DNA from: an uncultured Hyphomicrobiales bacterium
GTDB taxonomy: Bacteria > Bacteroidota > Ignavibacteria > Kapaibacteriales > UBA2268
Assembly (NCBI GenBank): GCA_964464375.1
Contig: CAYXFU010000007.1
Span: forward strand, 43,721 to 107,720
Reading direction: 5' to 3'
Length of the DNA: 64,000 nt
In this document: positions 4,706 through 15,423 of the stretch, one piece after another
Position numbering within the stretch: position 1 is the stretch's first letter
How the letters are laid out: each line of letters begins with the position of its first letter
Program-made: the position numbers and the translations under genes
The notes under the pieces: model-generated
What the model saw: only the letters and a program-made list of their open reading frames with translations
Databases searched by the model: none
Told to the model about the DNA's origin: nothing

Positions 4706-7552
4706 CTAGATAATAATCATTGCGTAAATAATCCAGGCAACAAGCAGCAATCCAAATGTTAATGCAAAGAATCCGAATACTTTTAATAATTTTAGCATTT
4801 TTGGAGAAAACTCAGTTGTTGAATAATTGTCAATCTTACCTGATTCTACTAATCTCCTATATTCATCGGGTCTGTCGAATTTCAATTCTTCCATTGTCAT
4901 TTGTCCTGAGAAAATGACAGTATCCATTTGGAATTTCTCTGGACGGAAGTGAGTATTGAAGAAATGAACAGTAAAGATAAATCCAGCAGCAAGCAGAGCT
5001 TCATCACTATGAATAATGGTTGCAACGTTGATCATCCAGCCCGGGAAAATGTTAGTCAGTAACTCAGGGAACCAAAGTGTTAAACCTGTACCACCGATTA
5101 CAAAAACACCCCAGAATACAGCGAAATAGTCAAACTTTTCCCAATATGTCCATCTGCCGTAATTCGGACGTTCGCCTTTTCCAATGAACCATTTGATTGA
5201 TGCTTTCATATCTTCTAAGTCCTTTAGGTTAGGAACCAGTGAATCCGGACCTAATAACATATTTTTCCATGTTTTATATTCAGAATTTTTCTTTCTAAAT
5301 AAATCAACAATATGAATAATAAAGATGGTGAACAATACAATTGCAGCATACCTGTGTAATGTACCTGCATTCTCAACACCTCCAAGGAGACCTGCACCAA
5401 TATTAGCCCATATTGTGTAAGAGAATTTAAGAATCATACCGGTTGCAGCAAGGGTTAAGAAACTGCAAATCATAGTGAAGTGAATCAATCTGCTTAAGCC
5501 GGAAAATCGTTCATACATTTTAGATTTGTCGTGGCTTGAGCTAGCATGCAACTCTTTCATTTTCTTTCGCAACTTGAATGAACGAGGCAACCAAAGCAGA
5601 GTATGCAAAAATGATACTGAGAATGTTCCTAAAAGTAACAAAGTCATACCCCAGAATGTGTAGAATAGGAATGGATACTTCTTTGGATCCTTATGAGTAG
5701 CATGAGACAAGTATTTGGTAAAACCTTTTGTCGCATTTGGATGACATTTCTGGCAAGTTTGAACAATATTATCCCTGCTAAGAGCTGATTTAGGATTGTC
5801 AATAGGCAATATCATGTGTGAACCGTGGCAATCATTACATTTAGCTGATTTATAAGAACCAAGCCAAGAAACTTTACCGTGATAAGTTTCGAAATAAGTT
5901 TTAGCTATTTCTTCATGGCATTTACCGCAAGTACTTAGGATTTCGTGACGGAAATTCCATTGATCGGTTCTTTTAATAGTATGCGCAGAATGGCAGTCAC
6001 TACAGACAGGAAGCTTCTTGTCAGTTTTGGTGATAGATGGAGAGTGAACACTCTTGTTGAAAACATCTTCTATACCAAAATGACACTTTCCACAAGTACC
6101 GGCAATATTTGCTTGGTTAATACTTGACTGTGGATTATCTTTGGGCAGTCCTTTATGTGGAGTGTGACAATCAGCACATGTTGCAGTAACGGTCAGACCA
6201 CTCTTGACAAGCCCTCTGCCATGAATACTCTCATCGTAATTGCTTGTAATAGAGTGTTGAGTGCCTTTATACCTAAGTGCAGCTTTTTTGCCTTCCTGAT
6301 GGCAGGTTGAACAGAGCTTTGGTATATTCATGGAGAATACTTTAGATCTTTTATCGCCTTTAGTTAATATAAAATGAGTGCCATGGCAATCTTTACATCT
6401 CGGTGCATCAGGATCATTCCTTGCAACAAGTTTACCATGAGTGCCCATCACGAAGTCGTTTCCAACAGCAGTGTGGCAAGCGGCACATTCAACTTTTGAA
6501 GTTGTGAGTGTTTCACATGCCCTAATCTTAGATGATGGATTAACACCAAGATGGCATTGAGTACAGGTTAATTTGGAATGGGTAGAAGTAAGAATTTCTC
6601 CATGGTCAACAAACATATTTCTTCCGTCTGCTGATTTACCGATAGTTTTTTTCTCATGACAGTTTTTGCACGCGACATCTGAAAGATTCTGTTCATAGAA
6701 TACTTTTCTGACTTTATGTGGCTGATGGCAGTCAATACATGCTGGAAGTACCTTAGCTTCCTTTTCCCAAAGTTCGCCCTTAATTATTTTTTTATGAACA
6801 AATTCAATACCAGCATGGCATTTGGTACAAGTTGCAGCGATATTCTTTCTGGAAATAGATGACCTGGGATCTGTATGAGGCAAAATCCTATGAGGTGTGT
6901 GACAAGAAGCGCATGTAGCACTAACAGTCAGACCTTTTTTAATAAGACCTTCACCGTGGATGCTTTCCTGGTAATTTTCATAAATGTGGCTTTGAGGAAT
7001 ATTTCTTTGCATCTGAACAGGTGATCCTTCCCTATGGCATCCACCGCAAAGTCGTGGAATATTCAGAGGATAGACAGATGATTCCTTGTCTGATCTAGGG
7101 AGAATTTCGTGACTGCCATGGCAAGTCTTGCAAGTTGGTGCTAAAGGATCTCCTTTTGCCTTTGCTTTGCCGTGAAGGCATTCATTATATAAAGCTTGTT
7201 CATCTTTATGACAACTTCCACATTGGTACTTTGGTTTGCCTTCGACATGCGGGAAACTACCTGGGTCGAATCCAACGTGGCACTGAATACATTTTACGCC
7301 AGCATGAATAGATTTGTTAAGCTTTTTGGGATTTACGAACAAGGACACTGTCTTTTTGCCTTTTTGCATAGTCAACGTTTTATCTTCGTGACACCCTAGA
7401 CATTCGTCATTTTCCTGAGCAAAAAGCTTTACAGGGAGTTTAGTTGCAAAAATGCCAATAAAAACTGCAAATAACAGTAAAACTAAACTGAATTTGAGTT
7501 TTTGATGGTCATGTAGATATTGTAGAATTTTTTTCATAAAAGGTACGTTCAA
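4706..7552 (-). CDS. 19-heme cytochrome c fused to membrane cytochrome b (CbcL-like bc-type quinol oxidoreductase)
   Basis: 19 CxxCH counted. C-terminal TM region has RLIHF, TLHRY, IIHIV, IIHSDEALLA, TVHFFNTH and the YGRWTYWEKFDYFAVFWG motif. Likely ATG at 7537. Confidence 0.85.
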   Translation of the reverse strand: MNVPFMKKILQYLHDHQKLKFSLVLLLFAVFIGIFATKLPVKLFAQENDECLGCHEDKTLTMQKGKKTVSLFVNPKKLNKSIHAGVKCIQCHVGFDPGSFPHVEGKPKYQCGSCHKDEQALYNECLHGKAKAKGDPLAPTCKTCHGSHEILPRSDKESSVYPLNIPRLCGGCHREGSPVQMQRNIPQSHIYENYQESIHGEGLIKKGLTVSATCASCHTPHRILPHTDPRSSISRKNIAATCTKCHAGIEFVHKKIIKGELWEKEAKVLPACIDCHQPHKVRKVFYEQNLSDVACKNCHEKKTIGKSADGRNMFVDHGEILTSTHSKLTCTQCHLGVNPSSKIRACETLTTSKVECAACHTAVGNDFVMGTHGKLVARNDPDAPRCKDCHGTHFILTKGDKRSKVFSMNIPKLCSTCHQEGKKAALRYKGTQHSITSNYDESIHGRGLVKSGLTVTATCADCHTPHKGLPKDNPQSSINQANIAGTCGKCHFGIEDVFNKSVHSPSITKTDKKLPVCSDCHSAHTIKRTDQWNFRHEILSTCGKCHEEIAKTYFETYHGKVSWLGSYKSAKCNDCHGSHMILPIDNPKSALSRDNIVQTCQKCHPNATKGFTKYLSHATHKDPKKYPFLFYTFWGMTLLLLGTFSVSFLHTLLWLPRSFKLRKKMKELHASSSHDKSKMYERFSGLSRLIHFTMICSFLTLAATGMILKFSYTIWANIGAGLLGGVENAGTLHRYAAIVLFTIFIIHIVDLFRKKNSEYKTWKNMLLGPDSLVPNLKDLEDMKASIKWFIGKGERPNYGRWTYWEKFDYFAVFWGVFVIGGTGLTLWFPELLTNIFPGWMINVATIIHSDEALLAAGFIFTVHFFNTHFRPEKFQMDTVIFSGQMTMEELKFDRPDEYRRLVESGKIDNYSTTEFSPKMLKLLKVFGFFALTFGLLLVAWIIYAMIII

Positions 7553-7566
7553 AAATAAATAAAATA

Positions 7567-14284: not shown

Positions 14285-14310
14285 ATGTTTTGTAAGTACG
14301 AAATATCGTA

Positions 14311-15423
14311 TTATAATTTAGCTAAGCATTGTTTCAAAAGAGCTGCAACATATTTTGGATTATGTGCAAATGAACCTGGGTCTTTTACAACTACTAAATA
14401 GTTAGCTAACAATTTTGCATCTGCTATAGGTAATTCTAATGGTTTTGCTGTTGTTGCAACAACATAATTTGTAGAATCGATCCAGCCTTTTGCCATAAGT
14501 TTTGCCTTTACAGAAGCCATATCAGCAAGAATTTCAGTAACCTTGGTACCTTTATCAGGATTCCAATTTTTATCAACAGAAGTATGGCAATTTGCCGAGA
14601 GACAGCCTGCTGTAGCCTGTGCTGATCTGAGTCCAGTTTCTTCGTTATAAGATGCTGTATTGAATGTATGTCCACCAACTAAAAGACCTAATGGGCTTCT
14701 CATGTGGCATTGGAAACATGCACCATCAATATTCTTGTGTGCCTGGCTTGTAGGAAGGGCTGATCCGTCCAATGAAAATCCACTCTGACCAAGAAGCATA
14801 TTTGACTGACCGCCATAATGTGGTCCCCAACGGAGTGAAGTGATTTTGACAGTAGCTTTTGATTCGTCAATAACTGGGTTAAGAACTCTTGCCTGATGAC
14901 ATCTTGCACAAAGGTTAGCATTTTTCAAATCTACATTGTCTTTGTGTGCGCCATATCTGAAAGAAAATGGAGCAACAGATGTGAATTTCCAGTCTGTGCT
15001 GTCATAAGCTGTATGGACTTTGTGGCATGTTCTGCAACCGATTGTTGATGGATTAGCAAAACCATTTGTGACAGTAGTGTCAGCACCTGTAACTGCTGTT
15101 TCTAGAAAACCTTCTGAAGTATGGCATGCTGCGCAACCGCTTCTGTTGGCATCCATGAATGCTTCGCCTTCGCCGTGTGTTGATAGAGCATATTCATTTG
15201 CTCTGGATACTAATGCTGAACCTGCATTGTGACATGCGCCACATGTAGCGTTTCCATCTTTTCCATCTTTTCCATCTTTACCGGCTCCACCGACTAATCC
15301 GTCTTTACCTGCGGGACCTTCGCAAGACATGATAAAAGTTGCAAATAACAGAATAGCTGCTAATGCTAATGATTGTAATTTGAATGTGCTTTTCATTAAG
15401 AACCTCATAAATTGTTTAAACAA
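14311..15423 (-). CDS. Multiheme c lipoprotein (5 CxxCH plus 1 CX4CH) with collagen-like linker
   Basis: Lipobox IMSC, 8 G-X-Y triplets, CGACH, CAACH, CRTCH, CARCH, CFQCH, CLSANCH, C-terminal DPGSFAHNPKY; likely ATG 15396 after GAGGT. Confidence 0.85.
   Translation of the reverse strand: MFKQFMRFLMKSTFKLQSLALAAILLFATFIMSCEGPAGKDGLVGGAGKDGKDGKDGNATCGACHNAGSALVSRANEYALSTHGEGEAFMDANRSGCAACHTSEGFLETAVTGADTTVTNGFANPSTIGCRTCHKVHTAYDSTDWKFTSVAPFSFRYGAHKDNVDLKNANLCARCHQARVLNPVIDESKATVKITSLRWGPHYGGQSNMLLGQSGFSLDGSALPTSQAHKNIDGACFQCHMRSPLGLLVGGHTFNTASYNEETGLRSAQATAGCLSANCHTSVDKNWNPDKGTKVTEILADMASVKAKLMAKGWIDSTNYVVATTAKPLELPIADAKLLANYLVVVKDPGSFAHNPKYVAALLKQCLAKL
15247..15318 (-). repeat. Collagen-like G-X-Y coding repeat, including a 9-bp GGAAAAGAT tandem unit
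   Basis: GPA GKD GLV GGA GKD GKD GKD GNA. Confidence 0.8.

Follow-up and report, generated by a model that had tools for sequence, protein, structure and literature searches.

A conserved, probably mobile multihaem gene cluster in Ignavibacteria-related genomes as a candidate electron path between the menaquinone pool and the cell surface

How might electrons pass between the menaquinone pool of the inner membrane and the cell surface in an uncultured bacterium of the Ignavibacteria type? The question is raised by a cytochrome gene cluster at 4706-15423 in the stretch of contig CAYXFU010000007.1 analysed here, a 64,000-nucleotide window to which all coordinates refer. The answer preferred, at a probability of roughly 0.55, is that this is a real, laterally mobile respiratory cluster whose products would form such a path. 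To our knowledge, hardly any bacteria other than Shewanella and Geobacter have had the mechanism of their extracellular electron transfer worked out. The cluster was read from genes alone; gene content, motifs, family relations and co-conservation are reported as found, and contacts, localisation, direction and substrate are worded as predictions.

The list of open reading frames (ORFs) and their translations showed a minus-strand block of eight co-oriented ORFs holding 48 haem motifs (46 CxxCH, 1 CxxxCH and 1 CxxxxCH), in agreement with the first-pass annotation of this DNA. The 948-residue protein contained 19 CxxCH, the 509-residue protein 13, the 737-residue protein 6 (plus the CxxxCH) and the 370-residue protein 5 (plus the CxxxxCH), while both small cytochromes and the 410-residue protein contained one each. 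In a six-frame count, 47 CxxCH lay within 4706-15423, with a single one across the 53 kb outside it, a density far above chance. The parts described earlier (a lipobox, a haem-bearing barrel, a Rieske lipoprotein exported by twin-arginine translocation (Tat), two monohaem cytochromes and cytochrome b domains) were each verified and are placed in Table 1. A divergent gene lies upstream of the cluster (15705, plus strand) and a convergent gene downstream (3616-4665, plus strand), and 16 metagenome contigs coding for an identical porin hold the same genes. Further ORFs on the plus strand (11542-11847 and 12077-12406) and on the minus strand (9914-10204 and 15431-15694) were taken as shadow or spurious frames.

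Table 1. Positions of the genes, domains and hairpins of the cytochrome cluster within the window.
Feature	Position	Strand	Characteristics
Hexahaem lipoprotein	14311-15423	-	Signal peptide, lipobox FIMSC, 5 CxxCH + 1 CxxxxCH
Fused monohaem cytochrome c and predicted 16-strand outer-membrane beta-barrel (cytochrome-porin)	12946-14178	-	CxxCH at residue 35, signal peptide, C-terminal aromatic residue
Tat-exported Rieske [2Fe-2S] lipoprotein	12410-12955	-	QRRDFLK (TIGR01409), lipobox LIVGC, CSH-x19-CPRH
c1a, monohaem cytochrome c	12022-12360	-	Sec signal, class-I fold, Pfam Cytochrom_C
Terminator-like hairpin after c1a	11950-11979	-	12-bp stem and U-run; -20.1 kcal/mol, z -4.8 against shuffles
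c1b, monohaem cytochrome c, tandem duplicate of c1a	11475-11843	-	58% amino acid identity to c1a
Terminator-like hairpin after c1b	11415-11449	-	15-bp perfect stem and U8; -24.4 kcal/mol, z -5.4
13-haem periplasmic cytochrome (509 residues), CbcA-like	9777-11306	-	13 CxxCH, C-terminal transmembrane helix 458-479
N-terminal domain (residues 1-205) of the 737-residue protein	9166-9780	-	Four-helix dihaem cytochrome b, PhsC/CbcB type
C-terminal part (residues 228-737) of the 737-residue protein, ImcH-type	7567-9099	-	Three transmembrane helices, CxxxCH, six CxxCH
19-haem periplasmic domain and six-helix FdnI-type cytochrome b	4706-7552	-	Probable CbcL/MtoC/MtrH family, accessory neighbour
Terminator-like hairpin at cluster end	4650-4680	-	-20.8 kcal/mol, z -4.3

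Conservation was scanned with one genome per species, which gave 47 loci, all from metagenome-assembled genomes of this lineage. The main porin clade comprised 34 loci, of which 22 carried the genes for the Rieske protein, the 13-haem protein and the cytochrome b::ImcH fusion, and 20 carried all six core genes (hexahaem lipoprotein, cytochrome-porin, Tat Rieske lipoprotein, small cytochromes c, 13-haem protein and b::ImcH) in the same order. The remainder were 5 loci of a short form and 7 loci interrupted by contig ends, leaving 27 informative loci; the Rieske, 13-haem and b::ImcH genes were thus present in 22 of the 27, with differing surroundings. A search started from b::ImcH instead of the porin led back to this six-gene core in another two genomes. 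A closely related locus, L006 (uncultured Ignavibacteria bacterium KTt_bin-1687), encoded proteins 71-95% identical to those of the window, and flanking genes were common to the window and this locus only. Since the core is kept while the flanks differ, the block appears to move as a unit. The synteny proposed for checking across Ignavibacteria and Kapabacteria was found for six genes, co-conserved in at least 20 genomes, but not for the CbcL-type gene, which adjoined the core only in L006, L025 and L033 (3 of the 22 other complete loci). A host of the Fibrobacteres-Chlorobi-Bacteroidetes (FCB) type, as suggested earlier, is supported by the Ignavibacteria-class relatives of the proteins and loci. 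Many loci with the cluster are titled "uncultured Hyphomicrobiales bacterium" or "Chloroherpeton", which are probably wrong taxonomic labels. The short form (L008, L013, L017, L019 and L036) comprises no more than the lipoprotein cytochrome gene, the porin gene and one or two genes for small cytochromes; the gene of about 700 codons past the small cytochromes encodes an unrelated pyridoxal phosphate-dependent enzyme and was rejected as an inner-membrane partner, so that any such partner would be encoded elsewhere.

At the inner membrane, the 737-residue protein is made of two modules. Residues 228-721 aligned end to end with P0351 (PIP78050.1) at 50% identity over 494 residues (E = 0), and PIP78050.1 is listed as an ImcH homologue in Table S3 of Zhong & Shi 2018. 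The haem spacing was 25/49/110/117/20/40 in the window and 24/49/109/117/20/40 in PIP78050.1. Compared via such published homologues, ImcH (GSU3259) of Geobacter sulfurreducens and this part of the protein have in common three transmembrane helices (237-263, 268-303 and 318-349), a first motif of the CxxxCH type (CGKVCH at 355), six CxxCH (380, 429, 539, 656, 676 and 716) and NapC/NirT/NrfH homology (Pfam Cytochrom_NNT, 1.1e-9; NCBIfam NrfH, 5.7e-13). The stand-alone length of about 470-520 residues was not found, as the ImcH-like unit is here the C-terminal part of a fusion with an N-terminal four-helix cytochrome b, unlike the monocistronic imcH of Geobacter. Among the best 120 relatives, 64 were fused and 53 stand-alone. 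The unit also differs from ImcH in being clustered with outer-membrane genes, and no mtrAB or mtoAB adjoined imcH in Zhong & Shi 2018.

Residues 1-205 matched the NCBIfam thiosulfate reductase cytochrome b NF011582 (E 4.9e-52; 177 bits, under the 204-bit cutoff) and Pfam Ni_hydr_CYTB (1.4e-26). A structural model of this domain showed four helices, with Foldseek matches to FdnI (1kqf_C, template-modelling score 0.64, target-normalised) and HyaC (6g94_A, 0.62), and His15, 33, 51, 165 and 179 were conserved across 65 fused b::ImcH proteins. The four-helix dihaem form and the thiosulfate-reductase-like annotation are those of CbcB, which is PhsC-like and annotated "thiosulfate reductase-like" (Joshi et al.). 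With seven transmembrane helices in all (4+3), the c-haem domain of the 737-residue protein is predicted to face the periplasm. By sequence, then, the ImcH relative is the C-terminal two thirds of this protein, fused to a CbcB/PhsC-like cytochrome b; the first-pass annotation had it as a cytochrome b and 7-haem protein. A thiosulfate reductase (no PhsA or PhsB), an arsenite oxidase (no AioA) and a bc1-type complex (cytochrome b of the wrong type) were rejected as readings of these genes.

The 13-haem protein is not the ImcH relative: against PIP78050.1, the ImcH homologue listed, its best E was 0.03, which is not significant. It looks, from its sequence, like CbcA, a periplasmic cytochrome with an anchor-sharing C-terminal helix that carries an invariant His: the His of HxxLRWYF in this helix was present in the window and in all 22 orthologues, and the stop of the gene overlaps the start of the 737-residue gene by 4 nucleotides. 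A C-terminal membrane helix with a His is likewise described for CbcA by Joshi et al., so by architecture the pair resembles CbcBA (GSU0593/0594), in which the multihaem cytochrome gene also stands just before that of the PhsC-like cytochrome b. It differs from CbcBA in having 13 haems rather than 7, a cytochrome b fused to ImcH, and no divergent sigma-54 regulator of the BccR type in the flanks. The haem domains of the 13-haem and 19-haem proteins were paralogous (26% identity, E 7e-35).

The 948-residue protein probably belongs, by architecture and haem layout, to the published CbcL/MtoC/MtrH family, with which it shares an N-terminal multihaem region and a C-terminal six-helix FdnI-like cytochrome b (TIGR01583, E 2.4e-12). 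The likeness was drawn through the layout of listed homologues: all 19 haem positions lay a constant 3-4 residues off those of OGU58019.1 (952 residues), and OGV21847.1 (944 residues) was closely similar, both being Ignavibacteria proteins listed as CbcL/MtoC/MtrH homologues by Zhong & Shi 2018. A hydropathy scan gave five C-terminal transmembrane segments, and the sixth was read by eye near IIHSDE/TVHFFNTHF. Set beside the CbcL described by Joshi et al., His ligands of the CbcL type were likewise seen by eye in helices 1, 2, 3 and 5 (FLHT, LIHF, LHRY/IIHIV and IIHSDE...TVHFFNTHF). The protein has 19 haems against 9 in CbcL, within the family range of 3-23 CxxCH, and its neighbour is a cytochrome-porin rather than MtrAB or MtoAB. 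The b domain was 52-60% identical to proteins of many phyla (6469 relatives), mostly fragments labelled formate dehydrogenase cytochrome b, and the listed CbcL homologues did not surface in this search. The two cytochrome b domains of the cluster were mutually unrelated, as are those of CbcB and CbcL (Joshi et al.). One other locus, L055 (7890-15132; an unclassified "bacterium" metagenome-assembled genome), has the 13-haem/b::ImcH pair followed by a split CbcL-like pair (a 646-residue multihaem protein and a 326-residue cytochrome b); a 196-residue MtrC-domain cytochrome precedes the 13-haem and b::ImcH genes, and there is no porin or Rieske gene.

At the outer membrane, an AlphaFold2 model of the 410-residue cytochrome-porin (30-sequence alignment; predicted local distance difference test score (pLDDT) 81.7, predicted template-modelling score (pTM) 0.80) showed 16 strands, and Foldseek returned PorB and OmpF-type porins, with OprP (2o4v) sixth and OprO (4rjx) eleventh. 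C35, C38, H39, M130 and H407 were invariant across 30 homologues. No Pfam or NCBIfam family was found for the porin or for these homologues at E up to 1. A word-index search gave 87 porin clusters, the named ones nearly all from Ignavibacteria, Kapabacteria or Bacteroidota, and a profile search with E <= 0.001 as threshold gave 575 representative clusters, with ALPRFAL..G..CxxCH.NPxGG in the distant members.

These features raise the question of Cyc2, for which Keffer et al. require a signal peptide, a single N-terminal CxxCH, at least 365 residues and the signature AxPxFAR[QK][TY]-5 aa-CxxCH-4 aa-PxL, with OprP/OprO as structural templates, as for the porin model. The length, the hydrophobic N-terminus and the CxxCH at residue 35 agree with this, and so does the modelled 16-strand, OprO/OprP-like fold. 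The first signature motif was absent: the window reads SRPQYSILQ, five residues and CSNCH, which shares only the Pro, one aromatic and one small residue, the Pro standing 12 residues before CxxCH in the same register as in Cyc2. Distant relatives with ALPRFAL still lack R[QK][TY]. The PxL four residues past CxxCH was also absent (CH-ENIQGGGVR in the window; family consensus CHxNxQGGGxR). With the signature motifs failing, the Cyc2 identity considered in the first-pass annotation was not upheld, and from sequence and model the porin may work like Cyc2, membership in Cyc2 not being claimed. Cyc2 of Acidithiobacillus, Mariprofundus, Gallionellaceae and Chlorobium has the same signal peptide, one N-terminal CxxCH, about 400 residues and a 16-strand OprO/OprP-like barrel; the porin described here differs in its partners, a Tat Rieske lipoprotein in every case and a hexahaem lipoprotein as a rule. 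We know of no Rieske or hexahaem lipoprotein partners of Cyc2. A second porin subfamily, about 30% identical, was seen in L037, L039, L040, L056 and L057 (at about 8000-13000 of each locus), in a module that lacks any multihaem cytochrome and joins the porin to cytochrome P460-like protein(s), a YceI-like protein and a Tat Rieske lipoprotein; the Rieske proteins of L039 and L040 have disulfide-type boxes (CTHQGC...CYCH). As a Rieske protein accompanies the porin family in both subfamilies, the porin-Rieske pair would be the oldest association.

The hexahaem lipoprotein is a candidate surface or outer-membrane-anchored cytochrome, judging from its signals. Behind the lipobox Cys it has 8 unbroken Gly-X-Y collagen-like triplets (window 15251-15286; residues ~36-59), e.g. 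GPEGPAGPPGKDGKDG, and the lipobox with 5-10 such triplets was kept in 30 orthologues. The stalk could trimerise the lipoprotein, thereby matching a trimeric porin. The CxxxxCH site is plain CxxCH in many orthologues, and it is probably a real haem site for this reason. Pfam MtrC/MtrF domain II/IV matched a 50-residue stretch only (33.5 bits, cutoff 30), and the gene stood directly upstream of the porin gene in 27 of the 34 main-clade loci. Sequence searches of the PDB with the lipoprotein, the Rieske protein and the three inner-membrane proteins gave nothing useful past weak haem-motif or cytochrome c matches.

The outer-membrane parts were stated earlier to be unlike MtrCAB, and this stands. 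The logic is, in our reading, that of MtrCAB and OmbB-OmaB-OmcB, a barrel and a lipoprotein multihaem cytochrome coded side by side. The predicted barrel has 16 strands against about 26; one haem domain is fused to it in place of a threading periplasmic deca- or octahaem protein, no MtrA/DmsE-like protein being found at cutoff; and the lipoprotein has 6 haems and only the short MtrC-domain match.

The Rieske lipoprotein has its probable true start at the Met at 12916, giving 168 residues, and its orthologues score as Pfam Rieske. Among the 27 Rieske sequences compared (the window and 26 orthologues), 16, including that of the window, lacked extra cysteines, and 11 had them (CxHxxC...CxCH). A disulfide between such cysteines is typical of high-potential Rieske proteins. 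A bc1/b6f-type assignment failed, as both cytochrome b domains of the cluster are of the Ni_hydr_CYTB type and the window Rieske has CSH...CPRH without the disulfide cysteines, in place of the CxHxGC...CxCH boxes expected of a bc1/b6f subunit. Acidic residues follow its lipobox Cys (CQDE, CEKDE and CERDE in the window and L006-L044). An acidic stretch at this place resembles the surface-export signal of Bacteroidota lipoproteins, so a periplasmic placement of the Rieske protein is tentative.

The small cytochromes c1a and c1b include a 238-nucleotide direct repeat at 73%, and 1-3 gene copies were present per genome elsewhere. Matches of c1a in the PDB were weak (3a9f_A and 7uea_C, both named only "Cytochrome c"), which we take to be the Chlorobi cytochrome c-z/PscC. 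A KKH motif just before the last helix was kept in at least 80% of the 35 family members, with no conserved Met column, and His/His ligation is predicted for this reason; low to middle potentials would follow from such ligation.

The claim of one operon became doubtful because of the strong terminator-like hairpins after both small cytochrome genes. Together with the hairpin at the cluster end, these may be terminators or attenuators, and they suggest at most three transcripts, or a surplus of small carriers, over one plain operon. The hairpins behind c1a and c1b could be attenuators that raise the ratio of soluble carrier to membrane complex. A sigma-70 promoter scan showed no excess (47 against 41 +/- 7 in shuffles), and FCB promoters differ from this type anyway.

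Put together, the parts would form the following path. The 13-haem protein may dock onto the 737-residue protein, its C-terminal helix and invariant His meeting the four-helix dihaem cytochrome b there, much as CbcA is placed on CbcB and the hydrogenase and formate dehydrogenase subunits on HyaC and FdnI. That cytochrome b is covalently joined to what would be a complete ImcH-type seven-haem quinol dehydrogenase, and the outcome would be a single complex holding 20 c haems in the periplasm and two modules that react with quinone. Abundant small cytochromes c and the Rieske lipoprotein may then relay electrons across the periplasm to the cytochrome-porin, which is presumed to be paired with the hexahaem lipoprotein on its collagen-like stalk. 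The CbcL-type 19-haem protein would be an optional second quinone link. With outward flow, Fe(III), humics or further acceptors outside the cell could be respired anaerobically, and the chain could run in reverse.

Outward flow is favoured on two grounds. ImcH oxidises menaquinol electroneutrally, its haems lie at -150 to -358 mV, and it is so far implicated only in quinol oxidation; and the carriers look low-potential, the small cytochromes having a conserved His and no conserved Met and the window Rieske lacking the disulfide cysteines. Several points weigh against this path to the surface. Every carrier is an uncultured organism, and the cluster is known from its genes only. The hairpins divide it into probable separate transcripts, and the short-form loci have no adjacent inner-membrane gene. 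A lone haem cannot span the outer membrane, so the conduit would need partner haems reaching into the barrel, which are putative. The AlphaFold2 model of b::ImcH was of low confidence (pLDDT 69, pTM 0.42), with fold matches meaningful for the cytochrome b domain only. Three more points count against the preferred reading: 11 of the 27 Rieske sequences retain the disulfide cysteines, CbcL/MtoC relatives occur in oxidisers too, and fused porins of the Cyc2 type are best known from Fe(II) oxidisers (Keffer et al.).

The last of these leads to a serious rival, unlikely on balance, in which the cluster takes electrons up in the manner of Cyc2: the cytochrome-porin would oxidise, outside the cell, Fe(II), reduced humics or a donor resembling a cathode, the Rieske protein and small cytochromes would carry the electrons inward, and b::ImcH and the CbcL-type protein would act as quinone reductases by reverse or lateral flow. 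The Cyc2-like architecture of the porin (one N-terminal haem, 16 strands, OprP/OprO-like fold), with the Pro in Cyc2 register, agrees with uptake, as do the disulfide cysteines of several orthologous Rieske proteins. CbcL/MtoC relatives stand in Fe(II)-oxidiser clusters, no feature tells the two directions apart, and surveys report Ignavibacteriales with both iron-oxidation and iron-reduction genes. What counts against uptake is that the porin fails both AxPxFAR[QK][TY] and PxL, that no terminal oxidase or carbon-fixation gene is linked to the cluster, and that the small cytochromes look His/His- rather than His/Met-ligated, besides the restriction of ImcH to quinol oxidation. A multihaem surface lipoprotein is also typical of organisms that reduce insoluble acceptors.

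The proposal made at first, that ImcH-, CbcL- and CbcBA-like proteins are three independent quinol oxidases, each with its own potential window as in Geobacter and with one outer-membrane exit, is improbable. All three module types are present (the CbcL-type 948-residue protein, the ImcH module and, by architecture, the CbcBA-like pair), so that part of the proposal stood, and a CbcL-type gene accompanies 13-haem/b::ImcH in the window, L006, L025 and L033 and, as a split pair, in L055. As three separate routes, the proposal is opposed by the fusion itself: the CbcB-like and ImcH-like modules lie on one polypeptide and are not independently deployable, and the fusion weighs, if anything, against independent potential-specific routes. 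The CbcL-type gene is missing from 19 of the 22 complete loci, and no BccR-type regulator is nearby. There are three kinds of quinone module, in probably only two complexes. Similarly improbable is a system that is not extracellular, in which inner-membrane cytochromes feed a periplasmic reductase or a haem "capacitor" and the porin is a solute channel with a sensing or detoxifying haem: the second porin subfamily, with its P460-like, YceI and Rieske proteins and no multihaem cytochrome, hints at periplasmic chemistry for that branch, but no reductase catalytic subunit stands in or beside the cluster in any of more than 20 loci, the PhsC-like cytochrome b is without a PhsA/PhsB partner, and the lipoprotein cytochrome and porin genes are adjacent.

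Within the preferred path between menaquinone and the surface, a more specific proposal is doubtful: a previously unrecognised type of outer-membrane conduit, in which the cytochrome-porin, probably trimeric, is capped by the hexahaem lipoprotein trimerised on its collagen stalk, is served from the periplasm by the Rieske protein, and is coupled to the CbcAB-type b::ImcH supercomplex as a possible redox loop or Q-cycle-like device instead of a plain quinol oxidase. The redox loop could arise if the two quinone sites of the supercomplex sit at opposite faces of the membrane.

A comparable arrangement is found in the rus and petI operons of Acidithiobacillus ferrooxidans, where the quinone pool is connected with a redox couple outside the cell through a fused cytochrome-porin, small carriers in the periplasm and a Rieske/cytochrome b system. 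The cluster follows the same linking logic but has no rusticyanin and no oxidase; its cytochrome b is not bc1-type, and a small lipoprotein takes the place of the Rieske subunit of bc1. ImcH and CbcL homologues were already catalogued in Ignavibacteriae, and surveys already report Cyc2-like hits and Geobacter-like porin-cytochrome genes in Ignavibacteria-related genomes. A full-text literature search, of incomplete coverage and hence giving absence of evidence only, found no description of the cluster, the cytochrome b::ImcH fusion, a Rieske partner of a cytochrome-porin or a collagen-like cytochrome. From the sequences, the cluster thus appears to join partly known parts in a combination for which no description was found.

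In this cluster an ImcH-type quinol dehydrogenase would be tied genetically to outer-membrane parts, a link that was not found reported, and the partners of ImcH are at issue in Geobacter. The cluster also shows two module types, separate in Geobacter, naturally fused in one protein, and would add a Rieske lipoprotein and a collagen-stalked cytochrome to pathways of this kind. Around the porin, a large unannotated family of Cyc2-like cytochrome-porins was defined, which motif-filtered Cyc2 trees (e.g. Keffer et al.) would exclude. Groundwater, humic lakes and bioreactors commonly contain Ignavibacteria and Kapabacteria, so that a pathway open to testing would aid the reading of iron and humic cycling there.

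Several further observations concern the neighbourhood. A set of genes resembling bat (Bacteroides aerotolerance) lies on the opposite strand and is split by the cluster (1855-4665 and 15705-18250); one flank holds BatA-like/VWA, TPR and PGA_cap genes, the other BatD and TPR/SH3 genes. From this gene order, the cytochrome cluster looks inserted into the bat gene set; a search of its borders gave neither direct nor inverted repeats as signs of insertion. At gathering score, Rfam matched the window only at one tRNA (61389-61460, minus strand). Adjacent CHASE2-domain proteins (399 and 417 residues) are encoded at 31333-33779, with no recognisable output domain at E <= 1e-5. A secreted subtilase (27457-30324) and a CAP/fibronectin-type protein (36765-38555) carry C-terminal sorting domains of type IX secretion, which fits an organism of the FCB group.

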